Of a stretch of 64,000 bases of DNA, positions 1 to 44,283 are shown in pieces. Within the stretch, counting starts at the first letter, position 1. Each line of letters starts with the position of its first letter. Location of the stretch: the IMG/VR virus record IMGVR_UViG_3300017909_004705; one strand, written 5' to 3'. The DNA is from a virus. Taxonomy: Duplodnaviria > Caudoviricetes. The notes below the pieces were generated by a model that was not told where the DNA came from, made no database searches, and worked only from the letters and a program-made list of their open reading frames with translations. A program made the position numbers and the translations under genes.

Positions 1-162
1 CACCAAGGGTCTTCTATGGGAGAAAACCTTTCTTATACAGGCACCGAAAAGTCCCAATATCAGAGAAAACACAACATTAAACCGGGTACAGACGAGTGGT
101 TCCAGTTATGGTTCTCAAGACCAAAACTCACTGGTGAAAACCCAATGCCTAAAAACAAATAA
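1..162 (+). CDS. 3' end of conserved phage hypothetical protein (partial)
   Basis: Open frame 1 from the window edge, ...RKHNIKPGTDEWFQLWFSRPKLTGENPMPKNK*, ending at TAA 160-162. Confidence 0.6.
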   Translation, partial: HQGSSMGENLSYTGTEKSQYQRKHNIKPGTDEWFQLWFSRPKLTGENPMPKNK

Positions 163-165
163 ATA
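160..165 (+). promoter_or_regulatory. T4-like late promoter core TAAATA
   Basis: ATAAATAC lies 8 nt before ATG 174; the same box recurs before other genes of this cluster. Confidence 0.55.
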
Positions 166-173
166 CTCGCAAT

Positions 174-908
174 ATGCGAGCCATTGAATTCACAGAAACA
201 AAATGCCCTCGAACAAGAGCAAAAGAATGTTCTTGTAGCAAGGTAAAAAGCATCACAGAAGCGGAACAGACCACTGTGGCACAGTGTATGCTTGAGCATT
301 CAGACACTGTGAAAGGCACTATACTGCTCATACAGGCCCCAGGAACACCAACTCTCATAAAAGGAACCATAACAGGATTAGAACCTGGCCTACACGGCTT
401 CCACATACATGAGTTCGGTGACATGAGTGAAGGCTGTAAGTCAATGGGCGGACACTACAACCCAGATGGTGTTGACCATGGTGACATTGAAAAGGGACAT
501 GTGGGTGATCTAGGAAACGTTTTAGCAGACGAATCCGGCGTAGCGAAATTTAGTATCACAGCGAAACGTGTTGATCTACTTGGTGAACGTTCTGTGATAG
601 GAAGAGGTCTAGTAATACACGCTGACGAGGACGATCTTGGCAAAGGTGGAGATGCTGAAAGTCTTAAAACAGGCAACGCCGGTGATAGATTGGCCTGTGG
701 TGTCATTGTTGCTAGGTCTGAAGAGATAGCAGAGGCGCATGGCGGTAAGCACACAACCAGTGGAAGAAGCATGACCAAGGGTGAAATGAATAAAAGAGAG
801 AAGATTGTCAAAGGTATGAAAAAAGACAAGGCAGGTTTCAAAAAGAGATATGGCAAAGACGCAGAAGCGGTGATGTACGCCACAGCAACTAAACAGGCGA
901 TGAAATAA
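174..908 (+). CDS. sodC: Cu/Zn superoxide dismutase with N-terminal MRAIEFTE leader and C-terminal basic module
   Basis: HGFHIHE, GGHYNP, HG..HVGDLGN, HADEDDLG and GNAGDRLACG motifs are intact. C-terminal KREKIVKGMKK..RYGKDAEAVMYATATK module. Confidence 0.92.
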   Translation: MRAIEFTETKCPRTRAKECSCSKVKSITEAEQTTVAQCMLEHSDTVKGTILLIQAPGTPTLIKGTITGLEPGLHGFHIHEFGDMSEGCKSMGGHYNPDGVDHGDIEKGHVGDLGNVLADESGVAKFSITAKRVDLLGERSVIGRGLVIHADEDDLGKGGDAESLKTGNAGDRLACGVIVARSEEIAEAHGGKHTTSGRSMTKGEMNKREKIVKGMKKDKAGFKKRYGKDAEAVMYATATKQAMK

Positions 909-1816
909 TGAAATTTTTAATTTTCAATGGCAGTTTAAAACCGGACGCAGAATCAAACACATTCGCTGTTTGCAAGATGGCACAACTGGCATTTGAAAAA
1001 TTGGGACACAGTTGTGAGATAGTAACTATGCGTGAACTGGACTATGAAGGTTCAACTGATGACGTTAACGATGATCTAAAACCTTACATCATGAAAATGT
1101 TTGACATGGACGGAGTTCTGTTCGCAACTCCAATCTGGTGGGGGACACACAGTTGCCACATACAGGCAATGCTGGAAAGATTAGACTTTATTTACAGTTG
1201 GGCCAAAGACAACAAGTATCAACCTTTTTACAACAAGGTTTTTGGAACATTGGTGTCAGGCGGGGGAGATGGATTCCAACACATACACGGAGTATTGTAT
1301 TCCGCGGCAAGTAACTTTGGTTTCACGGTGCCACCACAGTGCAACATAGAATCAAAAGCACAGGGCATAGAAGAAATTAAAGACGATGAAGACACTTTGA
1401 ACCAAGTTAAGAATTGCACAATCAACATGGTGACATGGGCAAGTATACTCAAAGCGGCACAACCCAGTAAAAATGCTAGACATGGATCTGTTGATATCAA
1501 CGAAAGCCTAAACGAAGGAAAAAGGATACCACGTAAAAAAGGACAGAAGAGAAAAAGCAAAAAACATAGTGACCTATACACCGATGAAGATCCAAAGGGC
1601 ACGATACATGGATTGGGTTTCAAGGATGAAGCCACAGCAAGATCAAGCGTGGCGAAGATAAGGAAGTCAGGAAGATCACACGCACACAAGATACAGGCGG
1701 CGGTGGCAATGGAGCAGAGAGCGAGAGCGGCAGGAAAGTCAGGACCAGCGGCGATATACAGGAAATACATCAACTCCATGAAGAAAAAAACTAAAGCCAA
1801 GAACAAGAAAAAATGA
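908..1816 (+). CDS. Flavodoxin / NADPH-dependent FMN reductase fused to a basic C-terminal module
   Basis: FNGSLK, ATPIWWG and YNKVFG..VSGGGDG motifs. After INESLNE comes a Lys/Arg-rich HSDLYTDEDPKGTIHGLGFKD domain. Confidence 0.8.
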   Translation: MKFLIFNGSLKPDAESNTFAVCKMAQLAFEKLGHSCEIVTMRELDYEGSTDDVNDDLKPYIMKMFDMDGVLFATPIWWGTHSCHIQAMLERLDFIYSWAKDNKYQPFYNKVFGTLVSGGGDGFQHIHGVLYSAASNFGFTVPPQCNIESKAQGIEEIKDDEDTLNQVKNCTINMVTWASILKAAQPSKNARHGSVDINESLNEGKRIPRKKGQKRKSKKHSDLYTDEDPKGTIHGLGFKDEATARSSVAKIRKSGRSHAHKIQAAVAMEQRARAAGKSGPAAIYRKYINSMKKKTKAKNKKK

Positions 1817-2052
1817 AAATAAGAGAAATACTTGCCACAAAGTACGTACATCCTGATGTTGACAAAATACTTAAAAAATATGAAAAGAGAGCAAAGGGTA
1901 GAGCAAGAATGGGATATCATTCGATGATGGCATATCCTTACAGGGTAGAAGGTAAAAAATGGAGCAGGAAGTATAAAAAATCAATCAATTGTGCAAATCC
2001 AAAAGGCTTCTCACAAAAGGCCCACTGTGCAGGTAGGAAGAAAAAGAAATGA
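1813..2052 (+). CDS. Small basic putative internal head protein
   Basis: MKIREIL N-terminus; C-terminal WSRKYKKSINCANPKGFSQKAHCAGRKKKK; ATGA overlaps with neighbours. Confidence 0.7.
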   Translation: MKIREILATKYVHPDVDKILKKYEKRAKGRARMGYHSMMAYPYRVEGKKWSRKYKKSINCANPKGFSQKAHCAGRKKKK

Positions 2053-2744
2053 AGATAAAAGAATTTATCATAATGCCTCACACAGCTGACAAAATGGGTT
2101 TAATACACAAACCAGGTGTTGGTCCAAATAACAGATTTGGTTTCAAAAACGTTGGCAATAATAAAGCAAATGAATTAGAAGAAACCAAAGAGGCGCCACC
2201 CGGCACTTATTTTACAAAGACAGGAAACCTCGTTAAAGGCCGTCTTACCAAGGCCGCTAAGGAGAAAGGAGCCAGAGAAACTGATCCAAAGGATAAACAA
2301 AGGTCAAAGGTACCGCCAGTCACGCAGAGAAATGAAGCAAGAGGATCATGTTGGCATGGATACCAACAAAAAGGATACAAGAAAAAAGGCAACAGGATGG
2401 TTCCTAACTGTGTCAAAGAAGAAGCCGCGGGAGTTGGCATAGTTACCAAACAGAACGCTACCAAGGATGTACCAGTCGGTGGCGAATACATGAACGTCAA
2501 GAAGCTAGGTTTAGGAAAAGGCAAGCCAAAAACAATGCGAGAAGAATGGGAAGAGTTCAAGGAAAATTTCGCAGATAAGAAAGTAAAAGGAAAAAGTAGA
2601 CCAGGCCGTGTAAAACGTGCTGGTGCAAGTTGTAAAGGCTCAGTCACATCATTGAGAGCAAAGGCCAAGAAGTACGGTGGCGAGAAAGGCAAAATGTACC
2701 ACTGGTGTGCCAACATGAAGTCAGGACGCAAAAAGAAGAAATAA
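2049..2744 (+). CDS. Basic modular putative internal head protein
   Basis: MKIKEFI N-terminus; Glu-delimited modules including CWHGY..VPNCVKEE and NFADKK..GASC..HWCANMKSGRKK. Confidence 0.7.
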   Translation: MKIKEFIIMPHTADKMGLIHKPGVGPNNRFGFKNVGNNKANELEETKEAPPGTYFTKTGNLVKGRLTKAAKEKGARETDPKDKQRSKVPPVTQRNEARGSCWHGYQQKGYKKKGNRMVPNCVKEEAAGVGIVTKQNATKDVPVGGEYMNVKKLGLGKGKPKTMREEWEEFKENFADKKVKGKSRPGRVKRAGASCKGSVTSLRAKAKKYGGEKGKMYHWCANMKSGRKKKK

Positions 2745-2754
2745 TTACTTCTAT

Positions 2755-3621
2755 ATGAAGTACTTGTTAGGCATAGGATTTGCAGTCACACAGAAATATA
2801 AAAAAGATCCCATAGTAAGAGTAAGCATAGACAACAGGTTCGTAGACGAATTCACTGTCAGTGATTACCCTTATCATGATAAAGAGTGGATGCAGGATCT
2901 CGATCCATGGGTCTACAAGGCACCATTCACAGACTGGATGAATCATGCAAAACCATGGGAAAAAATATCTATAAAAATGTGGGGCACTTTTCCAAAAAAA
3001 TTTAACTTGTATGTCATCGATGAAGCACACTTAAAACATAAAAAACAACTTGTAATCGATATAGCGAATTCTGACAGCAATTACACCAACGGATTCATGA
3101 CAAAATCAACCCTTCTAGATTTCAGGGCGTTTTTGCTTCCTTTAAAATATCTTAAATTTTTTTACCATGATGGTTATAAAATAAGGAAAGATTTCAATGA
3201 AGATATTATTGATGATGCATTTGACAGTGAAAGATATTTTGATCCAGAGGGTATAGAGGATAACAATTTCAAGATAGCCAATGAAAAAAGATATTATATG
3301 GTACAAGGTGTTGTTAGCAACGGTGCCTTGGGTAAAAATATTTTAGTTAAGAAAATCGAAGGTTATCCATTTGCACATGATATTTTTTGGAACGGGAAAC
3401 CGCTTGACACTTGGGAGTTTGGTGGCAGTGGGAAGTTAACCATGAATTTGGTAACAAAAACATCAGGCACGGTGTTGTTTGATCCAAAAGATGCGGAAAT
3501 TTTAAAAATGCAGAATGAGAAAATAGTGGCACAAAGACCTGGTTTCTACATATCCCAGAAATTCTTTAGCATGGTTCACCAGAATATGTTCGATAAATAC
3601 CTTTACAATGAAAATCTTTGA
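2755..3621 (+). CDS. Hypothetical protein
   Basis: 288-aa ORF with TAATTA 7 nt upstream; no motif recognised. Confidence 0.6.
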   Translation: MKYLLGIGFAVTQKYKKDPIVRVSIDNRFVDEFTVSDYPYHDKEWMQDLDPWVYKAPFTDWMNHAKPWEKISIKMWGTFPKKFNLYVIDEAHLKHKKQLVIDIANSDSNYTNGFMTKSTLLDFRAFLLPLKYLKFFYHDGYKIRKDFNEDIIDDAFDSERYFDPEGIEDNNFKIANEKRYYMVQGVVSNGALGKNILVKKIEGYPFAHDIFWNGKPLDTWEFGGSGKLTMNLVTKTSGTVLFDPKDAEILKMQNEKIVAQRPGFYISQKFFSMVHQNMFDKYLYNENL

Positions 3622-3880
3622 GATCATATCACGCCAGATCAAAGAGCAGGCCACTGCTGGTGCCACAAGTGCAGGCAACATAGCCACAGTTACCTCGCCA
3701 CATATCGCGATAGGCAAAGATAGATTCTCCAAAGCCTACTCAGGTTCACCTGGGAAGTCAGGAACCAGGGCTCCGAGATTACCAAAAATAGTGCAACCAA
3801 AAAATCCAGATGGAACTGCCAAAGGTGCACACAACCTACCCGGCGTAAATCTCATGGGTGGTCCACTGGTCAAGAGATAA
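3608..3880 (+). CDS. Small putative internal head protein
   Basis: MKIFEIISRQIKE then ATAGATSAGNIA; TAAATA at 3594-3599. Confidence 0.65.
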   Translation: MKIFEIISRQIKEQATAGATSAGNIATVTSPHIAIGKDRFSKAYSGSPGKSGTRAPRLPKIVQPKNPDGTAKGAHNLPGVNLMGGPLVKR

Positions 3881-4041
3881 TGGATACACTAGTACTTAAA
3901 AAAGAATGGATAGTCAAATGCCTCAACTGTGGCAATGACGCACATGAAGGCATTTTATATAGGACAGAAAAGGATTTTGACGGCAGAGAGTACAAAATAG
4001 AGGTGTGCAGGCAGTCAAGGCACGAAGGCGAAACAGTATAA
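3880..4041 (+). CDS. Small putative metal-binding protein (53 aa, not in ORF track)
   Basis: MDTLVLKKEWIVKCLNCGNDAHEG...IEVCRQSRHEGETV*; coupled to the previous stop (TAATG). Confidence 0.55.
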   Translation: MDTLVLKKEWIVKCLNCGNDAHEGILYRTEKDFDGREYKIEVCRQSRHEGETV

Positions 4042-4044
4042 ATA
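4037..4044 (+). promoter_or_regulatory. T4 late promoter TATAAATA
   Basis: Exact T4 late consensus, 5 nt before ATG 4050. Confidence 0.7.
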
Positions 4045-4049
4045 TTGAT

Positions 4050-4472
4050 ATGAAGATACAGGAAATCACAGAAGGCGCTGAAATGATAGCGTACCACAAA
4101 CATCCAACACAGCAGAATCTATGGACCTTCCCAGACGCATACAAAGACGACGAGGAAGTTGAGAGCCCATACATGAGCAACGCAAGTATGAGACAGTTCC
4201 TTGACGCACTTGGATATGACAGTGATTTCGAAGACATGAGTCCAGTGCCAGCAAAAGAATTCATAGCGAGAACCACACAATGGTTGCAGAAGAACATTGG
4301 CAAACCATCGCCAGAAGAACCAGCAACAGTTGATAAATCAGGTGGTGGAGCGACAATGATAGGTGGTGGCAGACCCGAAGGTTACATGAACCAGATGGTT
4401 AAAGCACACAACGAGATAGCGAGAAAAGTTTTAGCAAAATATCCTGAAGTAACACACTTTGGATTCAATTAA
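4050..4472 (+). CDS. Putative internal head protein
   Basis: Start reassigned to MKIQEITEGAE, just after TATAAATA. Confidence 0.65.
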   Translation: MKIQEITEGAEMIAYHKHPTQQNLWTFPDAYKDDEEVESPYMSNASMRQFLDALGYDSDFEDMSPVPAKEFIARTTQWLQKNIGKPSPEEPATVDKSGGGATMIGGGRPEGYMNQMVKAHNEIARKVLAKYPEVTHFGFN

Positions 4473-4473
4473 T

Positions 4474-5937
4474 ATGAAGATAAAAGAATTTCAACACCAA
4501 CCAGTCAAGCCTGACACATACGAGGCTTCAATGGCCCTTAACCAGTTGATGAGGATTGGCAAACACGCTATCAAACTGCACAACATGATCGACGATGCCA
4601 CAGAGATGGAGTCATGGGTCGCCAAGAAGATCGACCTGGCAGGTGACTACGTGAAGAAAGTGTACAACTACACAGAAGGCGAGAAGGCCGGCCTATACGA
4701 TGACGGTGGCATGACGGAAATTAAAAAAATGCCAAAAGGCACAGGAACCATGTATGGGGAAGACGCAGGCGACATTGGAAATGAAATTGCGAAAATGTAT
4801 GACACCGCATACGAATACATCAACGACAGCAGTGACAACCCGAGCGACATCGAATCAGACTACAAGTTTGGTTACAACGACGATGACAGCATGGAGGCAG
4901 AAGACCTAGCGGCGGCATTCAGAAAAGATTTAAAAACTGGAATGGCCTTGCAAAAGCAATTACAAGCACAGAGAGAAAAAGAAGGACGTGAGGGCGACTG
5001 GGATCCATTCAATCCTGAGTCAATGTATCATAATGAATTGAAAGCATTGATGTCAAAGGCCAAAGGTGAATCAGTTTCAGAAGACGCAGGCGAGGGACAC
5101 ATGAGCAAAAGCACACTGTATCACACTGCCAAGTATGCGATTGCATTGATGGACATGATCAAACCAGGTGATGACCTAGAGGGTTGGGTGCAGAGCAAAC
5201 TGAACAAGGCCGCGGACTACCTACAGGGTGTGTACAACTACGAGGAGTACCAAAAGTTAAATCCATACAGAGAAGAACTTGATGCGTCTCTGATGCAGAA
5301 ACACGCACAGGTGGTGCAGAAAAACATAGACGAGATTCTAGCAAAGGAAACAAAACTAGACGACATCGACACCAAACCAGGCATGATGAGGATACTGGCC
5401 AAGAGAGTCAACGAAGTTGAAAAAGAGATTGCCAAGGAAACAAGGAAAAAGACAGACGAAAGCGGTATATTATATAGAGCAGGCGTAAAGAAATACGGCA
5501 AGGCGGGCATGAAGGCCATACAGAGTGCGGCAGGTAAAGGTGCCTCACACCAAGAGATCGGAAAAATAAAAGACAAGCATCTAAAAGATGCTGAGGATCT
5601 AGAAGAAGGATTAAAAGATTGGGCTAGGAATCTAGCGGCGGCTGGTGTGATTGTTGGGGCAGTTGCAGGCTTGGGCTCAATACAGAATGCCATTGACAAC
5701 ACTGTACCTGCTGTCAAAGCCATGAACACAGCCTACGAAATGGCCATAGATGCTGGCAATGATGAATTGGCCAAAAACATAAAAAATGACATATCCGCAG
5801 TCAAGGTAAGGTTAGATAGTGGTAAAGACTTAAATTTTGTCAAGGCGATGCAGGAAAAATATGCCAAATTTATACAGACCGAAGGATTGGCATACGAATC
5901 AAGACTTCAAGTGCAACTAAATCAACAACTTAAATAA
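4474..5937 (+). CDS. Modular putative head protein with a duplicated helical domain
   Basis: MKIKEF start. Two copies of E..M....L.....AI.L..MI.....E.WV..K...A.DY...VYNY. Basic module ESGILYRAGVKKYGKAGMKAIQSAAG. Confidence 0.65.
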   Translation: MKIKEFQHQPVKPDTYEASMALNQLMRIGKHAIKLHNMIDDATEMESWVAKKIDLAGDYVKKVYNYTEGEKAGLYDDGGMTEIKKMPKGTGTMYGEDAGDIGNEIAKMYDTAYEYINDSSDNPSDIESDYKFGYNDDDSMEAEDLAAAFRKDLKTGMALQKQLQAQREKEGREGDWDPFNPESMYHNELKALMSKAKGESVSEDAGEGHMSKSTLYHTAKYAIALMDMIKPGDDLEGWVQSKLNKAADYLQGVYNYEEYQKLNPYREELDASLMQKHAQVVQKNIDEILAKETKLDDIDTKPGMMRILAKRVNEVEKEIAKETRKKTDESGILYRAGVKKYGKAGMKAIQSAAGKGASHQEIGKIKDKHLKDAEDLEEGLKDWARNLAAAGVIVGAVAGLGSIQNAIDNTVPAVKAMNTAYEMAIDAGNDELAKNIKNDISAVKVRLDSGKDLNFVKAMQEKYAKFIQTEGLAYESRLQVQLNQQLK

Positions 5938-5949
5938 AACTAGAACAAA

Positions 5950-5957
5950 TATAAATA
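5950..5957 (+). promoter_or_regulatory. T4 late promoter TATAAATA
   Basis: Exact consensus, 5 nt before ATG 5963. Confidence 0.7.
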
Positions 5958-5962
5958 CTCAT

Positions 5963-6835
5963 ATGGCACAAAAAAAATCAGCAGATTCAAGTTTCAGAGA
6001 CCTAGTAGCTCGTTTGAATGCTATGAACAATGTTACTCCTGAAGAAGAAAGAGCACAACTTATGGAAGCGGCGGGCAAAGCACCAAAAGTGTTAGATGAC
6101 AAAGATATTTCATTGGCTGACATCGCAAAACTGGCAGGAATAAAAGAATACGTTGAGCCTGTAAAAGTATCGGCAAAAGCAGAAAAATTAGTTGAGTCGA
6201 TCACGGAAGAGCCAAAATCAGAATCAGTCATAACAAAAGCAATCAAAGAGTCCGACGCTGATGATTCGATTGCAACCACAATCAAAAAAGAAGTAAACGA
6301 AGAAGTAAACAGACTCGAAAAAATCGCTGAACTAGAAGCACAGTTGGCGGAACTTAAAACTGAGCAAAAAGAAGAACAGACTTATGACTCAAAATCATTC
6401 AGAGAAGTTATCACAAAAGATATCGCAGAGTATGTCAAAAACGCGGAAGATACTCAACTTGTGGAACTTTACAACACAATATCGGACAATGAAGCAGTTT
6501 ACAATGAAGAATCATCAAGCATTCTTATCAAGACTCCAGAAACTACTGAGATCATAGCAGACGCTGAAAAGGCCGAAGCACCAGCAGAAGAAGAACAAGT
6601 TGACGAAAAAGTAGTGGACGGTGTGCAAACTGATAGAAACACATCTGAGCCACACTCGAAAGAAAAAGAAGACGAAAAGGAAGCAGAGGACAAGTCCGAC
6701 GAGAAGGATGACGCCGGTGAAGTTCCAATGCTTGACAAAGAATTCGACGATGACGATGAGATGGGCGAAGATGTTGAATTGGAAGCGCCAGCCGAAGACA
6801 AGTTCACAAACGATTTAGATCCAACAGAAAAATAA
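5963..6835 (+). CDS. Highly acidic protein, possible prohead core/scaffold-like
   Basis: Glu/Asp-rich, with a coiled-coil stretch and IAKLAGIKE; late promoter upstream. Confidence 0.5.
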   Translation: MAQKKSADSSFRDLVARLNAMNNVTPEEERAQLMEAAGKAPKVLDDKDISLADIAKLAGIKEYVEPVKVSAKAEKLVESITEEPKSESVITKAIKESDADDSIATTIKKEVNEEVNRLEKIAELEAQLAELKTEQKEEQTYDSKSFREVITKDIAEYVKNAEDTQLVELYNTISDNEAVYNEESSSILIKTPETTEIIADAEKAEAPAEEEQVDEKVVDGVQTDRNTSEPHSKEKEDEKEAEDKSDEKDDAGEVPMLDKEFDDDDEMGEDVELEAPAEDKFTNDLDPTEK

Positions 6836-6859
6836 TACTAGCAGATAACTACAGTTACT

Positions 6860-6979
6860 ATGTTGACATGGTTCCTATTAGGTATTTTGATTGGTGTTTT
6901 TATAAGATGCTTATCTCAGCCTTACAAATCTGAAGAGGATAAATTCAAAGATCCTTGGAACTGGACAACTTTCGGGTAA
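6860..6979 (+). CDS. Small membrane peptide (39 aa)
   Basis: MLTWFLLGILIGVFIRCLSQPYKSEEDKFKDPWNWTTFG*; TAACTA 8 nt upstream. Confidence 0.45.
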   Translation: MLTWFLLGILIGVFIRCLSQPYKSEEDKFKDPWNWTTFG

Positions 6980-6993
6980 TAGTAAATAAGTGT

Positions 6994-7635
6994 ATGCAGT
7001 TGCACTTGACAGATAACAAATTTGACACAAATCCGCATTGGCATGAACGTATAAAAAGCATATTCGCATGTCCACCCAAAGAAGTGGTAGAGATGTTTGA
7101 CCAGAATGGATATGATCTAACAAAACTAGAACAACTGTACGCGGTGGCCAATGGTGCAACCGTCACCAAACACAGGAACTCCGAACACATCACACTGCGT
7201 CAGCCATGGTTCACTGATGACTCACCAGACTCAGGCCCACACATCAACCATGCCTACATGTTTGAGAGAAAAGGCTACACCGGTGACGCACTACAACAAC
7301 TGTCCACGTGGGCAGGCTACAGGCCACACTTCCAGAAACTGATAGCCATGCGACCAAAATGGGGACTGGATTTCTCAATAGACTACTGTGACAGGGACGG
7401 CAACGTGTTCGAACTGCTACACTGGGAATATGATGGATTCGAATATCAAGAGATAGCAGACAAAAAGGAGAAGATGGAAGGATTCTTGTTGAATCAAGAC
7501 TGGGACGAACGGGCAAAGACCATGCTGGAACGCAAGGATGAATGGCATAAACTGGGCTTTTTTGAACAGAGCGAATGGAAAACTAGGTTCTTTGGCATAG
7601 ATAAAGAACGTTTCAAGATGGTGTTGTGGAAATAA
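6994..7635 (+). CDS. Conserved phage hypothetical protein
   Basis: Start reassigned to MQLHLTD, 5 nt after TAAATA (6983-6988). Confidence 0.6.
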   Translation: MQLHLTDNKFDTNPHWHERIKSIFACPPKEVVEMFDQNGYDLTKLEQLYAVANGATVTKHRNSEHITLRQPWFTDDSPDSGPHINHAYMFERKGYTGDALQQLSTWAGYRPHFQKLIAMRPKWGLDFSIDYCDRDGNVFELLHWEYDGFEYQEIADKKEKMEGFLLNQDWDERAKTMLERKDEWHKLGFFEQSEWKTRFFGIDKERFKMVLWK

Positions 7636-7644
7636 ATACTGCAA

Positions 7645-8463
7645 ATGAGCTCGATACCCTACAACTACGGAAAATACATAGATGACAAAGTCAGCATGAC
7701 TGACCAAGGTCATGTTGACTCAGCCAAACAGATACAGTCGCCGGCAAGTGCAGGTAGCAGGGGACTAGCAAAGACAACACAATTCACAAACGACCGGACA
7801 CAGATGCAGATGGGCAATTCAACGATAGCAGAATCAATGGTAGAAATAAGAAACATACTAAACAGGATCGACGGTGTAAACGCACCGGTGCAGGAAAAAG
7901 AATTCAACCCCAACGATGAACGTGATGAAGCACCAAGAGAAGGTGATGTGGTCAATCACAAAGACCTAGGCAAAGTATCAGTGATGAAAGTCACAGGTTC
8001 AGATCAGATGGGACAGCCAGCAGAATACATAGTGCAGGCAAAATTATCATACGATGAACTAATGGGTGACGTTGAACTTGGAAAATTTGAATCCTATGAA
8101 CCATTCCCAGAAGCAGACGAATTCGACATAGAAGAAGATGAAGATTTTGAAGAAGTGTTGGGTCCATTAGGTTTCCCAGAAGACGAGACAGTATTATTTG
8201 ATGCAGAATACAGGGGCAGGAAAGTCCCACTTAACAAACCAATGCGTGGTGATGTAAAGAAATTTAAAGTTTATGTTAAAGATCCAAAAACTGGCAACGT
8301 TAAAAAAGTCAACTTTGGACACGGTGGTACAAGTGCAAAAAGAAAGACTATGAGAATTAGAAAATCTAATCCTAAGGCAAGAAAGAGTTTTAGAGCACGT
8401 CATAATTGTGCAAATCCAGGACCAAAGACAAAAGCAAGATATTGGAGTTGTAGGAAATGGTAA
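7645..8463 (+). CDS. Modular putative head protein with basic 2-Cys C-terminal domain
   Basis: Acidic middle, then AEYRGRKVPLNKP..KKVNFG..RARHNC..ARYWSCRKW; TAAATA at 7633-7638. Confidence 0.65.
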   Translation: MSSIPYNYGKYIDDKVSMTDQGHVDSAKQIQSPASAGSRGLAKTTQFTNDRTQMQMGNSTIAESMVEIRNILNRIDGVNAPVQEKEFNPNDERDEAPREGDVVNHKDLGKVSVMKVTGSDQMGQPAEYIVQAKLSYDELMGDVELGKFESYEPFPEADEFDIEEDEDFEEVLGPLGFPEDETVLFDAEYRGRKVPLNKPMRGDVKKFKVYVKDPKTGNVKKVNFGHGGTSAKRKTMRIRKSNPKARKSFRARHNCANPGPKTKARYWSCRKW

Positions 8464-8645
8464 AAATTAAAGAAGTAGAAGGCATCACTGAAGCAGAGTT
8501 TGAAATATTCGCAGAGAAGAAGGATGCCTGCTATCACAAAGTGAAAGCAAGATATAAAGTTTGGCCATCAGCCTATGCCTCTGGTGCTCTAGTGCAGTGT
8601 CGTAAAAAGGGTGCGGCCAACTGGGGTAACAAGAGCAAAAAATGA
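8457..8645 (+). CDS. Small basic 2-Cys peptide protein
   Basis: MVKIKEVEGITE..EKKDACYHKVKARYKVWPSAYASGALVQCRKKG. Confidence 0.65.
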   Translation: MVKIKEVEGITEAEFEIFAEKKDACYHKVKARYKVWPSAYASGALVQCRKKGAANWGNKSKK

Positions 8646-9520
8646 AGATAAACGAACTTAACGAATCACCAGACAGAGACTACGTCAATCTTCCCAAGGA
8701 AGATATAGAAAGACTGCTACAGAAGTTCTTACCCGACTGGGAATACAAAGATAACAGTTTACAGAAAAGATACAAGTTTGAAGACTACTTTGAGGTTATA
8801 GAATTTTTGATCAACACGATCAAGCCTCAGGAAAAATTAGATCATCATGCAGACCTAGGTGTGTTCTACGATGAGGTGCTAGTAAAGGTATACACACACA
8901 GAACAAACGACGTGACAGACTATGACTTCATGGTTGCTGTTCAGATGGACATGATAGCCAAAATGAAACATGGTGCAATCAATCCAAACTACGACCTTAA
9001 TGCATTAGTCGACGAAGGTACCAGATGTTGGAAAGGTTACATGCGTAAAGGATTCAAAACAATGTTTGGCAAAAGGGTACCTAACTGCGTTAAAAGAGAA
9101 GGCAGGTTCTTTGTAAATGACGCTTTCGGAGAACAAGTTTTCGAATCAACTACAAAGGAAGATGCTTTAGATTTTTTGAGGCAGAACTATTTAGACCTAA
9201 AAACCTGTGCTGTGCATGACAACATATCAGAATCAAATCATTCCGGCCTAAGAGCATGGTTCGGTAAAGGCAAAAAGGGTGGTGCCGGAGGCGGCGGTTG
9301 GGACAGATACAACACCAAAGGCGAACGTATAGGTAAGTGTGGTGACAGGAAAAAAGGTGAAGGCAAACCTAAATGCCTGTCCAAAGCCAGAGCGGCATCA
9401 TTGAGAGCATCAGGTGGTAAGAAAGCCATAGCGGCCGCTGTGAGGAGAAAGAGAAGAAAAGACAAAAATCCTGACAGACGTGGTAAAGCAATCAACGTGG
9501 CAAATAAGAAGAAAAAATAA
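8642..9520 (+). CDS. Pterin-4a-carbinolamine dehydratase domain fused to basic 2-Cys modules
   Basis: MKINELNE leader. LPDW..LQKRYKFEDY..EKLDHHAD..V.VYTH...VTDYDF..A..MD is PCD-like. Followed by CWKGY..VPNCVKRE and GLRAWF..GKCG..KPKC modules. Confidence 0.75.
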   Translation: MKINELNESPDRDYVNLPKEDIERLLQKFLPDWEYKDNSLQKRYKFEDYFEVIEFLINTIKPQEKLDHHADLGVFYDEVLVKVYTHRTNDVTDYDFMVAVQMDMIAKMKHGAINPNYDLNALVDEGTRCWKGYMRKGFKTMFGKRVPNCVKREGRFFVNDAFGEQVFESTTKEDALDFLRQNYLDLKTCAVHDNISESNHSGLRAWFGKGKKGGAGGGGWDRYNTKGERIGKCGDRKKGEGKPKCLSKARAASLRASGGKKAIAAAVRRKRRKDKNPDRRGKAINVANKKKK

Positions 9521-9521
9521 T

Positions 9522-9550
9522 TTGCATTTCACAAATATCTAGTATATAAT
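9522..9550 (+). promoter_or_regulatory. Sigma70-type promoter
   Basis: TTGCAT-N17-TATAAT, followed by a CAGGAG RBS and ATG 9576. Confidence 0.7.
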
Positions 9551-9575
9551 TGTTGAATAACAACAGGAGAAAAAA

Positions 9576-9833
9576 ATGGCAGTAAGAAACTTCAACGACG
9601 CAGAAAAACAAAAATTAATCCAAATCATATCTCAAGGCTCACAGGTACTTGGTGAAGTAGAGGATCTGAGAGCAGGTTTGAAAGACACTGTGAAAGCGAT
9701 AGCAGAAGAGTTAGAATTAAAACCAGCACTAATCAACAAGGCGATATCCGTAGCACACAAGGGCAACTACCAGAACATCGCTGACGAGATGGACACACTA
9801 GAAAGTATACTGAACACAGCCGGTAAACTTTAA
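9576..9833 (+). CDS. T4 DsbA/GapR-like dsDNA-binding protein
   Basis: 85-aa helical protein with LKDTVKAIAEELELKPALINKAI pattern, located upstream of the polymerase. Confidence 0.55.
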   Translation: MAVRNFNDAEKQKLIQIISQGSQVLGEVEDLRAGLKDTVKAIAEELELKPALINKAISVAHKGNYQNIADEMDTLESILNTAGKL

Positions 9834-10111
9834 TGGTCAACTTACTCAAAGAATTTTGGGTAACAAGTTACAAAACAGACAAACTTGCTTTTTATCTCGA
9901 AGTATTTTCGGTAGCGGTAACAATAGCAGGTTCATGGCTGTTGACCTTTACCTCTCCAGGCCCGGACATGAAAATGGTGTTCCCACTATATCTACTCGGA
10001 TCAAGCACACTAGCGTGGGCGTCATTCCGCAGAAGAATAATTTGGACTTGCGTATTGGCGTCATGGTTTACTATAATGAATGTGATAGGAAATTTTAGAG
10101 TATTTTTATGA
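9833..10111 (+). CDS. Small 3-TM membrane protein
   Basis: Three hydrophobic segments. Confidence 0.6.
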   Translation: MVNLLKEFWVTSYKTDKLAFYLEVFSVAVTIAGSWLLTFTSPGPDMKMVFPLYLLGSSTLAWASFRRRIIWTCVLASWFTIMNVIGNFRVFL

Positions 10112-12771
10112 GTTACATAGATGCACTATACAAAAAAGACGAGGATAAAATCTACGTTGTAGAACGTGATCCAAAGAAGGGTCGAGTGTTCGTAGAGTAC
10201 GACGCAAGATACGTTTTTTATTATCCAGACGCAAGAGGCAAACACAGGTCGATGACTGGAGAACCTTTGCAAAGGGTAATTTGTCAGACAAACAAGGAAT
10301 TCATTAAGGAGCAGAGGATTAGGTCCAACAAGCAACTTTATGAACAAGATATCAATCCGGTGTTCAGATGCTTAGAAGAAAACTATTTGGGCAAAGAGAC
10401 GCCCAAATTGAACACTATGTTTTTTGATATCGAGGTTGACTTCGATCCAGATCGAGGTTATTCCACAACAGATGATCCGTTCATGCCCATAACTGCCATA
10501 AGTTGTTACATGAGTTGGACGGATCAACTGGTGACACTTGCTGTGCCTCCAAAAACAATTAGCATGAAGGACGCACAAGAGCTCACTAGAAGATTTGAAA
10601 ATACCATGTTGTTCGAAAAAGAAAAAGACATGCTTGATGCGTTCCTACAACTTGTTGAAGATGCTGATATATTATCAGGTTGGAACTCCGAAGGGTATGA
10701 TATACCATACACTGTGGGTAGGATACAAAAAGTATTAAGTTCAGATGATACGAGACGTTTGTGTTTCTGGGGAGAAAAACCAAAGAGAAGGGTGTTCGAA
10801 AAATATGGCAGAGAACAATTGAGTTTTGATCTTGTAGGCAGGGTGCATCTCGATCTGCTAGAACTATACAGGAAGTACACATATGAAGAACGACACAGTT
10901 TCAGACTTGATGCTATAGGTGAACACGAACTAGGCGAGAAGAAAACAATTTATGAAGGATCATTAGATAATCTTTATAAAAATGACTTTGGATTGTTCAT
11001 AGAATATAACAGACAAGATACTGCACTGCTGGCCAAACTTGAAAAGAAGTTGAAGTTCATAGAACTTGCGAACGAGATTGCACACCAAAACACTGTGTTG
11101 CTACAAACAACAATGGGTGCGGTTGCTGTAACTGAGCAGGCCATTGTCAATGAAGCACACAGGCGTGGTATGATTGTTCCAGGCAGAAGATATAAAAAAG
11201 ATGGTGAAGAGAATCAACCGGCGGCGGGTGCCTATGTGGCAACTCCTATAAAAGGCATACATGATTGGGTTGGTTCAATTGACATCAACTCTCTGTATCC
11301 AAGTGTAATTAGAGCGTTAAACATGGGACCTGAAACAATAGTTGGGCAGATAAGACCTGTCATAACATCAGCAGAGATCAACAGGGCCAAACACGCAAAG
11401 AAGTCTTTCGCGGCGGCATGGGATAGCCAGTTTGGAAGTTGGGAATATCAGGCCGTTATGAACAAGGAAAAAGGAACAGAGATCATAGTGGACTGGGAGG
11501 ACAAAACCAGTGTGCGTATGAGTGCGGCACAACTTTATGATATAGTTTTTGAAGGCAACAACAAATGGATGTTGAGTGCTAACGGCACAATATTCACATA
11601 CGAGTATGAAGCAATTATTCCAGGATTACTGAAACGTTGGTATGCTGAAAGACAGGAAATGCAACGTAAGATGCATGAGTGTGGTGATAACGAAATTGAA
11701 AGAGAATACTGGGATAAGAGACAACTTGTTAAGAAAATTAATTTGAACAGTTTGTACGGTGCTATTTTAAATCCAGGTTGCAGATTTTTTGACATAAGGA
11801 TTGGACAGTCTGTGACATTGTCAGGAAGGTGCATAACGAAACACATGGCAAGTAAAGTAAATGAAATAGTTGCAGGCAAATATGACCATAAAGGTGAGAG
11901 CGTTGTTTATGGAGACACTGACTCAGTTTACTTTTCTGCATATAAAACTTTGAAAAAAGAAATTGACCAAGGTGTTATACCATGGACAAAAGACTCAGTG
12001 GTGGCCTTGTATGACAAAATATCTGACGAGGTCAATGGCTCATTCAAGGCATTTATGACAAAAGCATTCCATTGTCCAAGCACCAGAGGTGAAGTGATTG
12101 CCGCGGGTAGAGAGCTTGTAGGATCTAAAGGTCTGTTTATTACAAAGAAAAGATATGCACTGCTCTACTATGACAAAGAAGGTGAGAGGACTGACACGGC
12201 GGGCAAAGAAGGAAAAATGAAAGCAATGGGACTTGATTTGAAAAGGTCTGACACTCCTGTATTCGTACAGGACTTCTTGAGTGATCTTCTTTATATGGTA
12301 TTGACCGGTAAGAACGAAACAGAAGTGTTAGAAAAGATCAGCGAATTTCGAGCAGAATTCAAAGCAAGGCCAGGTTGGGAAAAAGGATCTCCCAAGAGAG
12401 CAAACAACATGACCAAGTACACAGCGGCCGAGGAAGCGAAAGGCAAGGCAAACATGCCGGGACATGTGAGGGCCAGCATGAACTGGAATAGGTGTAGAGA
12501 AATGTATGGAGACAAATATTCGTTGCCTATCACTGATGGTGCCAAAGTTATTGTGTGCAAGTTGAAGAACAATCCACTAGGCTATACAAGCATCGCATAT
12601 CCTGTAGACGAAATGCGTATTCCAGAATGGTTCAAAGAACTGCCATTCGACGGTGACGCTATGGAAAGCACTATCCTAGACCAAAAGATTGACAACCTCA
12701 TAGGTGTGCTAGGTTGGGACGTTCAAAGCACAGAGACCACAAACACATTTAACAAACTATTTGACTTTTAA
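10108..12771 (+). CDS. polB: Family B DNA polymerase (gp43-like)
   Basis: Exonuclease motifs FFDIEV, GWNSEGYD and YNRQD; polymerase motifs DINSLYPS, KINLNSLYG, YGDTDS and KKRY. Confidence 0.97.
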   Translation: MSYIDALYKKDEDKIYVVERDPKKGRVFVEYDARYVFYYPDARGKHRSMTGEPLQRVICQTNKEFIKEQRIRSNKQLYEQDINPVFRCLEENYLGKETPKLNTMFFDIEVDFDPDRGYSTTDDPFMPITAISCYMSWTDQLVTLAVPPKTISMKDAQELTRRFENTMLFEKEKDMLDAFLQLVEDADILSGWNSEGYDIPYTVGRIQKVLSSDDTRRLCFWGEKPKRRVFEKYGREQLSFDLVGRVHLDLLELYRKYTYEERHSFRLDAIGEHELGEKKTIYEGSLDNLYKNDFGLFIEYNRQDTALLAKLEKKLKFIELANEIAHQNTVLLQTTMGAVAVTEQAIVNEAHRRGMIVPGRRYKKDGEENQPAAGAYVATPIKGIHDWVGSIDINSLYPSVIRALNMGPETIVGQIRPVITSAEINRAKHAKKSFAAAWDSQFGSWEYQAVMNKEKGTEIIVDWEDKTSVRMSAAQLYDIVFEGNNKWMLSANGTIFTYEYEAIIPGLLKRWYAERQEMQRKMHECGDNEIEREYWDKRQLVKKINLNSLYGAILNPGCRFFDIRIGQSVTLSGRCITKHMASKVNEIVAGKYDHKGESVVYGDTDSVYFSAYKTLKKEIDQGVIPWTKDSVVALYDKISDEVNGSFKAFMTKAFHCPSTRGEVIAAGRELVGSKGLFITKKRYALLYYDKEGERTDTAGKEGKMKAMGLDLKRSDTPVFVQDFLSDLLYMVLTGKNETEVLEKISEFRAEFKARPGWEKGSPKRANNMTKYTAAEEAKGKANMPGHVRASMNWNRCREMYGDKYSLPITDGAKVIVCKLKNNPLGYTSIAYPVDEMRIPEWFKELPFDGDAMESTILDQKIDNLIGVLGWDVQSTETTNTFNKLFDF

Positions 12772-28751: not shown

Positions 28752-28786
28752 TATCCTCCCAAATTTTCAACTATTAAATATTGTTG

Positions 28787-29827
28787 ATGTATAGCCTAGA
28801 TACCTTAAGTGAAATCAATTTTGAACTGAGCAGTCATTGTAATTCAAAATGCTCCCAGTGTCCAAGATACGACATGAAGGGATATGTCCGATCAGATTTA
28901 AATGTAACACACCTAGAGTTAGATATAATAGAAAATCTTCCCATTAACCAAATGAAGTCACTAAAAACAGTTTCTTTCTGTGGCAATTTTGGTGATCCTT
29001 TGATGCACCCACAACTGGATAAAATAATTGATTGTTTTCCTGAACAAAATATTTCAATAAGCACAAATGCATCTTTAAGAAATACAGAATGGTGGAGTAG
29101 TTTAGGAGCAATGAAAAATGTTACTGTGACTTTCTGCATAGATGGAATAGGAAAAGAGCATGAGATGTATCGACGCAATACCTCTTATGAAAAAATAATA
29201 AAAAACGCAGAGGCGTACATCAGATCTGGTGGCGAAGCAACATGGCAATTCATTCTTTTCAAACATAACGAACATCAGACACAGGAAGCAAAAAAAATAA
29301 GCAAGGAAATGGGATTTAAAAAAATTTCATTTTTATATTCCGATAGGTTCGACACACAAGACACATGGCAGGTATATGACGAGGGAGAATATCTTTATGA
29401 TCTAGAAAAATCTTCCCAACAAATTACCATGCGAGATGCTCTTGGGTCCGAAGTTGGTGAAAAGTACTGGAAGAATTTGTACAAAGGCAAAAAAGAAATA
29501 TCTTGCTATTGGAAACAGGAAAAAAAACTTTACATACATAGTGACGGTACAGTGTACCCTTGTTGTATGTTGGGCACTATAAATGCTGGTAAAAATATTG
29601 AAAAAGTACTTTTGAAGAAAATAGTGAAGGATTATCAAAATATTGATCTACATCACAACAGTCTGCAAGATGTATTACAATCAGACGTATTTCTCAAGGC
29701 ATTACCGGCTAGTTTCGGCGGTGATCCATTTTCCCACCCGATTTGTATAGAACACTGCAATAAGGCCACCGGTAAGTATGCGTTGGAAGGATTGAGTAGA
29801 GTCAATACAGATAGACAGTTCACATGA
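28787..29827 (+). CDS. Radical SAM / SPASM-twitch protein
   Basis: CNSKCSQC, CGNFGDP, STN and IDG motifs; C-terminal DGTVYPCC..CIEHC. Confidence 0.85.
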   Translation: MYSLDTLSEINFELSSHCNSKCSQCPRYDMKGYVRSDLNVTHLELDIIENLPINQMKSLKTVSFCGNFGDPLMHPQLDKIIDCFPEQNISISTNASLRNTEWWSSLGAMKNVTVTFCIDGIGKEHEMYRRNTSYEKIIKNAEAYIRSGGEATWQFILFKHNEHQTQEAKKISKEMGFKKISFLYSDRFDTQDTWQVYDEGEYLYDLEKSSQQITMRDALGSEVGEKYWKNLYKGKKEISCYWKQEKKLYIHSDGTVYPCCMLGTINAGKNIEKVLLKKIVKDYQNIDLHHNSLQDVLQSDVFLKALPASFGGDPFSHPICIEHCNKATGKYALEGLSRVNTDRQFT

Positions 29828-40131: not shown

Positions 40132-41056
40132 AATAACTTTCTAATCCTTGTCTTAGGGTAAATTGTGGTTGATAATCTAAAAGGTCTTTAGCCCTGCTTA
40201 TATCTAAAGTGCCTCGCATGGGATATAGTTTATGCATTCCTATATCTTTGATTTCAGATTGACTGCCTGTTATATCAATAATTGTTTCTGCAAGTGTCCT
40301 TAGGCTAGTGGCATTGCCTGCCGTTATGTTGAAACTAGTGTTGGCAACTTCAGAATTTGCCGCTTTAATTATACCATAGGCGGCATCCTGCCTGTACGTA
40401 AAGTCAACTCTGTTTTCACCATTGTGCAAGTGAATTTCTTCATTTTTCATTGCTTTGTCAAAAAACTTTGACACAACTCTGTCTGGAAGGTCTCCAGGAC
40501 CAAATACTCCACTGGGCCTTACAATGACATAGTTGAGTCCATCTCTCTTGGCAAATAACTTTGTGAGCCTTTCACCTGTCAATTTGGCCTCGCCGTAGAT
40601 GTTCTGTGGTTTAGTACTTGCTTCTTCTCTTGTTCCGTCAACAAAATCACCGTACACCATGCTACTACTGATGTACACAAATTTTTTCGTATTCCATTTA
40701 GCGGCATGCCATAACAAGTTTGTTGTTGTGTCAATTACTTTTGGAATGCCATTTATAGGATCTTCGTCTACTATTTTTGCTCTTGGATATGTCGCCATAT
40801 GTATCACTGTGTCTGGATTGGTTTTGAAGGCTCTAAGGCAAACCAGTCTGTCTAACACATCACCATGGATTATCTGTACATTTTCCTTCTTCCAATTTCT
40901 AGTTCTCCATTCAATCAGTTTATCAAGTGCTGACGGAGTAATAATATCGTAAGTGTCTTTGTTATCCACACATACAACTCTGTGTCCGTCGTTGGACAGT
41001 TTCTCTATTATCTTTGTGCCTATAAATCCTAATCCACCTGTAATCAAATATTTCAT
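40097..41056 (-). CDS. NAD-dependent epimerase/dehydratase
   Basis: TGGLGFIG, ISSSMVYG and YGEAK motifs. Confidence 0.9.
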   Translation of the reverse strand: MKYLITGGLGFIGTKIIEKLSNDGHRVVCVDNKDTYDIITPSALDKLIEWRTRNWKKENVQIIHGDVLDRLVCLRAFKTNPDTVIHMATYPRAKIVDEDPINGIPKVIDTTTNLLWHAAKWNTKKFVYISSSMVYGDFVDGTREEASTKPQNIYGEAKLTGERLTKLFAKRDGLNYVIVRPSGVFGPGDLPDRVVSKFFDKAMKNEEIHLHNGENRVDFTYRQDAAYGIIKAANSEVANTSFNITAGNATSLRTLAETIIDITGSQSEIKDIGMHKLYPMRGTLDISRAKDLLDYQPQFTLRQGLESYYDWIRKYTGKI

Positions 41057-42519: not shown

Positions 42520-42664
42520 CTTCCTCCTTGTGCCAACCCCTGTCCTCGATATTGTTGCCTTTGCATTTAGGACATGCCCAACCCTCTTCCGAGTCGTCCT
42601 GTATTAGATCCTGTGGTGCCCCACGCCACTGACAGCCATAGCAATACCAGTTCCACCAGGCCAT
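42500..42664 (-). CDS. Small Zn-ribbon protein
   Basis: CYGC...CPKC; start reassigned. Confidence 0.55.
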   Translation of the reverse strand: MAWWNWYCYGCQWRGAPQDLIQDDSEEGWACPKCKGNNIEDRGWHKEEDEDTRN

Positions 42665-42665
42665 C

Positions 42666-43607
42666 CTATTTTGTCTCTTGTCCTGCAAGATATTTCTCTG
42701 CTTCCAGGGCCGCCATGCAACCCATTCCGGCGGCTGTCACCGCCTGCCTATAAGTTTTATCTTTTACGTCACCAGCGGCATAAACTCCTTCTACGCTAGT
42801 AAGAGTTGAATCAGGTTTTGTAATTATGTAATTCTCATTGTCCATCTCTACTTGGCCTTTGAATATGCCTGTGGCTGGATCATGCCCTATTGCAATGAAT
42901 ACTCCATCTATTTTCTTTTCAGTGATAGATCCATCCACTGTGCTTTTAAGTTTCACACCAGTAACGTTATTTGGATTCTCATCTCCCACTATTTCTTCAA
43001 TCTGGCTGTTCCAAATACATTCGATCTTTTTGTGTGCAAATAACCTGTCCTGCAAAATTTTTTCTGCCCTTAATTTGTCTCTCCTATGCACAAGATAGAC
43101 TTTACTTGCCATTCCTGTGAGGTAAAGTGCTTCTTCAACTGCACTGTTTCCACCGCCAACCACTATGACCTCCTTGTCCTTAAAAAAGAATCCATCACAT
43201 GTTGCACAGGCAGAAACTCCGAATCCTGAAAATTTCTTTTCACTTTCTATTCCCAACCATCTTGCTTGGGCGCCTGTTGATATGATCACACTGTCGGCCG
43301 TGTATGTTTCTCCACTTTCCCCTACTGCGGTGAATGGTCTATTACTGAAATCAACTGATTTAATCATGTCTGTAATGATGTCTGTGCCAACACTTTTAGC
43401 CTGTTGCTCCATCTGTTGCATCAACCACGGCCCTTGTATTACATCACCAAATCCAGGATAGTTTTCCACGTCAGTTGTTATTGTCAATTGTCCTCCTGGT
43501 TGCATACCCTGTACCAACGTTGGCTTCAGCATCGCCCTTGCTGTGTATATGGCCGCGGTATAACCAGCGGGACCTGATCCAATAATTAAAACTTTTGAAT
43601 GTTTCAT
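42666..43607 (-). CDS. trxB: Thioredoxin reductase
   Basis: IIGSGPAG, GGQLTITTDVENYPG, CATCDG, GGGNSAVEEA and AAGDV motifs. Confidence 0.96.
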   Translation of the reverse strand: MKHSKVLIIGSGPAGYTAAIYTARAMLKPTLVQGMQPGGQLTITTDVENYPGFGDVIQGPWLMQQMEQQAKSVGTDIITDMIKSVDFSNRPFTAVGESGETYTADSVIISTGAQARWLGIESEKKFSGFGVSACATCDGFFFKDKEVIVVGGGNSAVEEALYLTGMASKVYLVHRRDKLRAEKILQDRLFAHKKIECIWNSQIEEIVGDENPNNVTGVKLKSTVDGSITEKKIDGVFIAIGHDPATGIFKGQVEMDNENYIITKPDSTLTSVEGVYAAGDVKDKTYRQAVTAAGMGCMAALEAEKYLAGQETK

Positions 43608-44281: not shown

Positions 44282-44283
44282 TT

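Follow-up and report, generated by a model that had tools for sequence, protein, structure and literature searches.

We analysed a 64,000-nucleotide stretch of viral DNA, hereafter the window, from IMG/VR record IMGVR_UViG_3300017909_004705, whose source is an uncultured marine giant (jumbo) phage. Near its start the window contains a well-delimited late-type island of tagged modular proteins, in which eight open reading frames (ORFs, named here by their first position) begin with a common N-terminal leader and many products are built from small exchangeable modules. The island is probably a variant of the internal-protein system of phage T4.

A common leader marks eight genes

A scan of all six frames of the window with the pattern M(V)[KR][IAVL]xE returned the same eight ORFs that the first-pass annotation, made from the sequence alone, had singled out for their M-(K/R)-(I/A)-x-E start. 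These are ORFs 174, 1813, 2049, 3608, 4050, 4474, 8457 and 8642, all on the plus strand and within 9.3 kb (174-9520). No other ORF start in the remaining 54 kb has the leader, and the sole further match to the pattern is internal, inside the DNA polymerase. The leader comprises 5-8 residues with the consensus M-(K/R)-hydrophobic-x-E-hydrophobic-x-(E), and several tags, MKIREILA and MKIKEFII among them, hold the first Glu only.

As comparison set we used 80 related viral loci (L004-L083; 648 kb in total), in which all 170 matches to the leader pattern lie on the gene strand. Position 6 is I, V, L or F in all 78 distinct leaders, although the search pattern did not include it; Glu stands at position 8 in 30 of them, position 4 is free and the hydrophobic positions 3 and 6 are fixed. 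The synonymous codons of these leaders are chosen as freely as in the gene bodies, which, together with the fixed hydrophobic position 6, argues for selection on the leader protein and not on its RNA. Judged from this pattern of variation, the leader is a discrete unit under selection at the amino acid level. In the family of ORF 1813 (431 clusters from marine metagenomes), 97 of 120 representatives drawn by homology begin with the leader and a further 18 carry it within 40 residues, just inside an over-long gene call, which brings the total to 115. Two trivial identities were rejected: the ORFs are not spurious, since they have hundreds of conserved homologues, and the leader is not a signal peptide, since it has no hydrophobic core.

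Two other features were seen beside the leader. Locus L077 (1395-1676) encodes a 94-residue tagged protein (MKISEIISEL) in which RRDFLK, a twin-arginine-like motif, and an Ala/Gly-rich stretch follow the tag, an odd combination of a head-type tag with an export-type signal. Additionally, a motif SP-x-S/G-x-GSRGL or SPG(S/A)RG(L/V) recurs after leaders, or in the N-terminal module that begins MSSIPYNY, in small proteins that are otherwise unrelated (window 7645-7833; L063:2637-2798; L074:2272-2424; L069:1282-1419).

Promoter-like boxes and gene arrangement

The sequence ATAAATA occurs five times on the plus strand of the whole window, each time 5-8 nucleotides 5' of an island ATG (Table 1), and TAAATA also lies 5' of the true start (6994) of the gene called as ORF 6955 and, on the other strand, of a virion-structural gene at 62846. 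The five ATAAATA and the one TAAATA before island ATGs are predicted late-type promoters of the TATAAATA type, as precede the tagged internal proteins of T4. Position alone is telling here, since exact TATAAATA is not enriched in the window (2 observed against 2.5 expected). In the 80 related loci all 86 copies of ATAAATA lie on the gene strand, and in 71 cases an ORF starts 4-9 nucleotides downstream. The remark of the first-pass annotation that several tagged ORFs sit behind TAAATA boxes is right as worded, but it applies to three of the eight only; the other five abut or overlap the preceding stop, four of them sharing an ATGA, and island genes without a box are generally arranged in this way, mostly with a shared ATGA. 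A box 5-8 nucleotides from the ATG leaves no space for a ribosome-binding site, and the late transcripts may start almost at the start codon. The gene for HTVC008M gp132 has the same layout (TATAAATA, 8 nucleotides, ATG).

These arrangements bear on an explanation in which the island products would not be virion cargo: they would act late inside the cell, for instance as DNA-condensing or nucleoid-remodelling proteins and stress enzymes, and the leader would serve another end, such as N-terminal stability or the efficient translation of mRNAs whose 5' end lies almost at the ATG. The short distance between box and ATG speaks for it, since some transcripts may lack a ribosome-binding leader, and so does the presence of the cassettes in viruses without T4-type heads (see below). 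Nevertheless, five of the eight tagged genes are operon-internal and unboxed, three boxed genes have no leader, and synonymous codons vary freely whereas hydrophobic positions 3 and 6 are fixed; in addition, a homologue is present in a virion and the leader matches T4 propeptides, as described below. We regard this explanation as improbable.

Table 1. Genes, modules and promoter-like elements in and around the tagged island (Cu/Zn SOD, Cu/Zn superoxide dismutase; PCD, pterin-4a-carbinolamine dehydratase; pI, isoelectric point).
Feature	Position	Strand	Remarks
ATAAATA late-promoter-like boxes	159-165, 3593-3599, 4038-4044, 5951-5957, 7632-7638	+	before ATGs 174, 3608, 4050, 5963, 7645; the first lies 8 nucleotides before its ATG
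Tagged Cu/Zn SOD	174-908	+	Pfam PF00080, 1e-45; leader MRAIEFTE 174-197; Cys-rich segment 198-260; SOD domain residues 46-178
Basic tail module of ORF 174, AHGG..VMYATATKQAMK	735-905	+	after EEIAE
FMN reductase, no leader	908-1816	+	PF03358, 1.5e-15; basic tail module 1517-1813 after SLNE
Tagged 79-residue protein	1813-2052	+	leader MKIREILA; module A 1837-1950 ending RVE; INC..HC cassette 1951-2049
Tagged five-module protein	2049-2744	+	every module preceded by Glu; modules N 2049-2183, TKEAPPG 2184-2336, CWHGY..PNC 2337-2423, AAGVG 2424-2564, GASC..WC 2565-2741
Untagged 288-residue gene product	2755-3621	+	N-terminal ~135 residues alone match (28-36% identity) the same-position gene in related loci
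Tagged basic 90-residue protein (MKIFEII)	3608-3880	+	ATAAATA box 3593-3599
Untagged 53-residue protein with C-x2-C motif	3880-4041	+	
Tagged acidic 140-residue protein (MKIQEITE)	4050-4472	+	TATAAATA box 4037-4044
Tagged acidic 487-residue protein (MKIKEF)	4474-5937	+	internal duplication, variable insert, hydrophobic stretch
Untagged very acidic 290-residue protein	5963-6835	+	pI 4.3; TATAAATA box 5950-5957
Untagged 213-residue gene product	6983-7635	+	TAAATA box; true start ATG 6994
272-residue protein, no leader	7632-8463	+	ATAAATA box; ATG 7645; N-terminal module 7645-7833 (MSSIPYNY..STIAE), then an acidic middle and, after FDAE, the conserved basic RHNC..WSC domain (8209-8460)
Tagged 62-residue protein	8457-8645	+	MVKIKEVE, GITE, DACY..VQC cassette 8517-8642 after IFAE; phrog_727, 5.5e-24
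Tagged PCD	8642-9520	+	leader MKINELNE; PF01329, 2e-16; PCD 8666-9016; CWKGY..PNC cassette 9017-9100; C-x2-H module 9101-9232; GKC..PKC tail 9233-9517
Sigma-70-type promoter (TTTGCA, 18 nucleotides, TATAAT)	9521-9550	+	ends the island; dsbA and DNA polymerase follow

Exchange of modules at glutamate joints

In the related loci the modules of the island recur in other combinations, with borders that fall after Glu (a caret marks the joint). The CWKGY cassette, which in the window reads LVDE^GTRCWKGY, is found elsewhere after a bare leader (MKIIEVFE^GTRC, MRLVELQE^GTRC, and also after MRAKEFHE and MKILEILE) or after chains (EITAE^GTRC, QMTE^GTRC), and one 42-residue gene product consists of a leader and a CWKGY-type cassette alone (MKTWEITE^GTRC..). 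The SOD of L025 and L064 lacks the tail module, which in L024 and L034 is found instead within homologues of ORF 4474, inserted between NTDE and ANE^SGILY. The tail of the FMN reductase is a separate gene with its own leader in two loci (L070:7283-7612, L066:4859-5179) and is missing in L077, where SOD is found in fusion with the 45-residue N module of ORF 2049. Leader and INC..HC cassette together make a 45-residue gene product (L070:5579-5716) and the GASC..WC cassette a 65-residue tagged one (L066), while the TKEAPPG module moves between the families of ORF 2049 and ORF 1813 (it is present in the ORF 1813 homologue of L064). The ORF 8642 protein occurs in split and re-fused forms among the 80 loci; an automatic count of leaders on split genes (70 of 162 against 106 of 688) suffers from the confounding effect of ORF truncation and wrongly called starts, and the hand-checked examples given here are preferred.

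The borders were evaluated on clean large indels only, a test that replaced BLAST alignment-end statistics, in which the enrichment of Glu was only threefold because alignment ends are fuzzy. Among 63 distinct inserted modules, 20 were bounded exactly by Glu at both ends (E^...E^), against a null expectation of 1.07 and a maximum of 6 in 500 trials. With a tolerance of two residues, Glu bounded both ends in 27 of 50 (null 7.0, maximum 15) and hydrophobic-x-E in 15 of 50 (null 1.9). Likewise, our alignment of ORF 8642 homologues (alignment A1) shows an invariant Glu ahead of each of the first two cassettes and a nearly invariant one ahead of the third, while the adjoining residues vary. The first-pass annotation had suggested searches across phage genomes to show independent shuffling of the cassettes, and had named as its own touchstone whether their borders fall on Glu sites conserved in homologues; the borders do coincide with such sites, and modules are exchanged there across the related loci.

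Some cassettes extend well beyond these loci. The DACY cassette was found in 365 phage records, mostly of T4-like cyanophages and in proteins of the Syn9 gp114 type, and in longer metagenomic proteins it mostly follows F(E/D)xLAE; one cassette was found in at least 8000 longer proteins. Against DUF5872 (PF19197), ORF 8457 scored 19.1 bits, below the gathering cut-off of 27.5, and 13% of one Atlas look-alike cluster carry DUF5872.

Cysteine pairs

All seven two-Cys motifs listed in the first-pass annotation are present as written, and their Cys are kept or lost together: six cassettes have both in all homologues, and in the seventh both are present in 7 homologues and absent from 3, and HTVC026P lacks both. 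Such behaviour suits the disulfide loops that had been proposed, but zinc is equally possible. In module 9101-9232 a C-x2-H is invariant, with C-x2-C in its place in the short form (alignment A1), and it lies just before an ISE^S joint and a C-x11-C pair; this proximity makes zinc as likely as a disulfide, and the two pairs could together form a four-ligand zinc site.

Structural comparisons gave no further guidance. Sequence searches of the PDB with three cassette regions returned nothing below E 0.7, and an AlphaFold model of the C-terminal part of ORF 8642 (predicted local distance difference test score, pLDDT, 60) returned nothing below E 2.6 when compared with the PDB by Foldseek. The model of the ORF 7645 C-terminal domain is likewise of low confidence (pLDDT 54). 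A likeness of the CW cassette to alpha-defensins was rejected, as the hairpin matches are at chance level.

The RHNC..WSC domain as a free-standing protein

The RHNC..WSC domain at the C-terminus of ORF 7645 (phrog_7595, 5e-14) belongs to a family of 3644 clusters at 50% identity that has no Pfam entry. Nearly always it forms the last 85 residues of proteins 105-972 residues long, whose N-terminal parts are acidic and hypervariable; in one record a protein with this domain is labelled 'HVA1 family protein'. As a free protein of 79-90 residues, without leader and beginning MA(K/T/I)Y(K/Q/R)G, it is encoded by the podophage HTVC026P, the siphophage Kolga, the Roseobacter phage CRP-901 and an archaeal Nitrosopumilaceae spindle virus. 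Fusions, with the domain after ..E^Y or ..E^F, are seen in the window, in the T4-like phages HTVC008M and Melnitz and in a Flavobacterium myophage. The start of the free domain thus coincides with the E^Y or E^F of the fusions, and the Glu joint marks the true domain start. In the isolates examined, Glu joints were found in myophages only (two of them T4-like) and in none of the small phages or the spindle virus, and a leader-like start in one only, gp171 of Flavobacterium phage immuto. By the distribution of their homologues, the cassettes are widespread small domains of marine viruses and not special to the tagged system.

The joints could also have a purely structural role. In that case the leader would mediate packaging and only the leader, if anything, would be removed, so that intact multi-domain DNA-binding proteins would reside in the head, with the Glu joints as plain flexible linkers and recombination seams. 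Most T4 internal proteins do lose just their N-terminal tag (PMC9026906), some joints in the window have no hydrophobic residue at P3 (FDAE^Y, VKRE^G), and the possible four-ligand metal site would span the ISE^S joint. On the other hand, modules found as separate genes each have their own Glu-ending leader at the same border, the free domain of the small phages starts exactly at the joint, bounding by Glu at both ends is far above the null, and phages of the phiKZ type cut head proteins at several sites. We therefore consider removal of the leader alone to be rather doubtful.

Enzymes and other proteins of the island

Three island proteins carry intact-looking enzyme domains. The Cu/Zn SOD match covers the whole profile (positions 1-133 of 133), and the motifs HIHEFGD, GC, GGHYNP, DH, GHVGD, VIHADEDD and GDRLACG are present, which contain the metal-ligand His and Asp, the disulfide Cys and the active-site Arg. 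The PCD domain scores 60.3 bits (cut-off 26) over profile positions 3-90 of 91, with NCBIfam scores under the equivalog cut-offs, and the NADPH-dependent FMN reductase domain scores 57.5 bits (cut-off 24). A Cu/Zn SOD fold is carried in virus particles of Megavirus chilensis, and in vaccinia virus as the SOD-like core protein A45R. The likeness to these giant eukaryotic viruses lies in this fold within a particle; they belong to another virus realm and use another packaging route, and packaging in the present phage is only predicted.

Bacterial Cu/Zn SODs are periplasmic and require a disulfide, which raises the question of whether the SOD and the Cys-pair cationic peptides act outside the cytoplasm, as extracellular or envelope-active factors released at lysis; the leader would then be a signal for export or processing of an unconventional kind. 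The joint retention or loss of the Cys pairs would agree with this, as would the beta-hairpin of the CW cassette and its weak, non-significant matches to alpha-defensins. These matches, however, have E above 2, the leader has no signal peptide or hydrophobic stretch, and it resembles T4 head propeptides, with a homologue of the cassette proteins in a virion. We consider an extracellular role very improbable.

The first-pass annotation had described the bodies of the tagged ORFs as mosaics of Lys/Arg-rich cassettes, but ORFs 4050 (pI 5.0) and 4474 (pI 5.3) are acidic, without Cys, and not built from cassettes. Within ORF 4474 one segment is present twice (residues about 9-75 and 199-265); there is also a hypervariable insert, bounded MTE^...E^DAGEGH, and around residue 400 a hydrophobic stretch of Ala, Gly and Val. 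The product of ORF 4474 could be a core or scaffold-like protein. The island also contains the untagged genes 2755, 3880, 5963, 6994 and 7645, and ORF 2755 gave no Pfam or PHROG match.

Beyond the island, dsbA encodes a weak match to a DsbA-like late-transcription factor (PF11126, E 5.5e-4, under the Pfam cut-off), and the DNA polymerase (10108-12771) is of the T4 type; it shares 50% identity with that of the Sinorhizobium jumbo phage Phosso, the nearest cultured relative judged by this protein, and 42-46% with its counterparts in Atu_ph07 and Rak2-like phages. Other genes of the window encode a tail protein and virion proteins. Several radical-SAM proteins, a carbamoyltransferase, a methyltransferase and sugar-nucleotide enzymes are encoded at 28781-29827 (plus strand) and 41056-52523 (minus strand) and may belong to a pathway that modifies DNA or glycans. 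A genome of about 350 kb is estimated from related IMG/VR contigs, which reach 172 kb at a rated completeness of 47%. The island is present in seawater, marine and estuary metagenomes; a megablast of positions 1-10000 against 50,697 phage records gave no close DNA match, and tblastn of ORFs 2049 and 4474 against phages gave no match.

Relation to known head proteins and to a cyanophage virion

In T4 a ten-residue tag suffices to load foreign proteins into heads, with residues 4 and 7 responsible for targeting and residues 8 and 10 for directing the cut, and other basic proteins with similar tags are known from T-even relatives (PMC9026906). In the T4 record, IPII and IPIII begin MKTYQEFIAE, Alt begins MELITE and gp22 MLKEQLIAE. 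Tags of this type have about 6-10 residues, a hydrophobic-x-E-hydrophobic core and an end in (I/L/V)-x-E. The island leaders agree with this pattern, apart from the several that hold the first Glu only, and their positions 3 and 6 correspond to T4 positions 4 and 7 with an offset of one residue. A very similar string belongs to a shell protein: gp24 begins MAKINELLRE and is cut before S, and ORF 8642, an enzyme-cassette fusion, begins with the nearly equal MKINELNE followed by S. The N-terminal region of gp23, with FLTE followed by A, also fits the motif.

The island and the IPI-III/Alt set have further points in common. In both, a short N-terminal tag ending in Glu is attached to mostly basic and otherwise unrelated proteins, the locus varies between relatives, the promoters are of late type and an enzyme is among the cargo (Alt in T4). 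They differ in that the island tag reaches its first Glu one residue earlier (MKIxE against MKTYQE), that many island proteins are chains of two to five modules with extra Glu joints, and that the predicted cargo includes SOD and PCD, in a marine jumbo phage of about 350 kb. The mature parts have no homology to IPI, IPII, IPIII or Alt and no Pfam, PHROG or NCBIfam match to internal virion protein families; the internal proteins of T4 relatives are likewise without mutual homology in their mature parts (PMC9026906). Multiple cutting has its own precedent in the inner-body and ejection proteins of phiKZ and SPN3US, where a T4-related protease cuts many head-internal proteins after Glu at several sites, but there the motif is S/A/G-x-E, the cuts mostly remove long propeptides and shuffling of modules at the sites is not described.

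Cultured phages provide two further connections. Phosso, HTVC008M and Melnitz each encode a Peptidase_S77; the proteases of the two marine phages (HTVC008M and Melnitz) begin MKLITEE and MKLIAEQ, and the gene directly after the Phosso protease begins MRASELFE. Additionally, seven peptides of S-CREM2 ORF160 were detected in CsCl-purified virions, beside other non-structural virion proteins (PMC10665884). ORF160 consists of three of the cassettes of the window, and Syn9 gp114 and S-P4 gp060 are cassette chains as well. These proteins, which are described in the literature as T4-GC119, 'hypothetical' and part of a mobile cassette, share with the island the cassettes DACY..C, CW..NC, SLRxWF..C..C and VMYATA, linked by EEVxxE-type joints. 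They differ in having no MKIxE leader and in being one long protein near the terminase genes, not an island of tagged genes. In HTVC008M (gp130-gp131) and S-CREM2 (gp154-gp160) the cassette proteins adjoin a cytidylyltransferase, which in S-CREM2 is itself a virion protein; HTVC008M gp130 begins MKTLKELL. Our literature search found no description of such tags in marine or metagenomic phages.

Interpretation and significance

We lean modestly towards the view that the island proteins are loaded into the head and cut at Glu joints, in a variant of the T4 internal-protein system, and our confidence in head targeting alone is higher than in the full mechanism. On this account the island would be a variable late-gene set of head-internal proteins, the counterpart of T4 IPI-III and Alt. 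The leader of 5-8 residues would bind the assembling prohead core in the manner of the T4 capsid-targeting sequence, and a head protease of the T4 gp21 type would then cut after Glu, removing the leader and opening the (hydrophobic)-x-E joints that link the modules. The cuts would free small basic domains, several with a conserved Cys pair, together with enzymes (Cu/Zn SOD, PCD), and the products would stay with the DNA and probably enter the host along with it. Packaging, cutting and ejection in this phage are inferences, as is the role of the basic domains, for which neutralisation of DNA charge is the simplest guess.

Several observations weigh against this view. The virion detection concerns a homologue, S-CREM2 ORF160, in another phage, and no head protease or major capsid gene was found in the window or in ten related contig records (up to 172 kb, each with an estimated completeness of 11-47%), of which five were searched with PF03420 and all ten with PF07068. 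A leader is missing from the FMN reductase, from the 7645 protein and from the acidic 5963 protein. The motif (hydrophobic)-x-E is short and frequent by chance, and the joints without a hydrophobic P3 depart from it. Moreover, if the four residues around the ISE^S joint hold one zinc, that joint would lie inside a folded unit. The first-pass annotation had also read these ORFs as precursors packaged into the head and cut. This reading gains from the likeness of the leader to T4, the Glu borders and the homologue in a cyanophage virion; its emphasis on a library of cationic peptides was misplaced, since enzymes would be among the cargo too, and the cassettes are not specific to the system.

Tentatively, and as a single combined proposal that we hold to be more speculative than head loading and cutting, the cutting sites might double as evolutionary joints. 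One tag would load a chain of independent effectors, which the phages would swap, split and fuse at these sites, and the mini-domains, once ejected, might have host DNA, defence systems or the envelope as their targets. The Cys-pair mini-domains, common to podophages, siphophages and archaeal spindle viruses, would be a shared toolkit of marine viruses, and SOD, FMN reductase and PCD would be co-packaged as the particle's own redox protection.

Cultured phages already carry such proteins, so that direct testing is possible. If head loading and processing are confirmed, the cyanophage 'T4-GC119 hypothetical protein' would be re-read as a cargo polyprotein, and very large families without a Pfam entry (3644 clusters in one case, at least 8000 longer proteins in another) would gain a function. 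It would also account for the entry of enzymes and of many small basic proteins into virions, and the T4 head-loading tag would be not a coliphage peculiarity but part of a general, expandable delivery system in abundant ocean phages.

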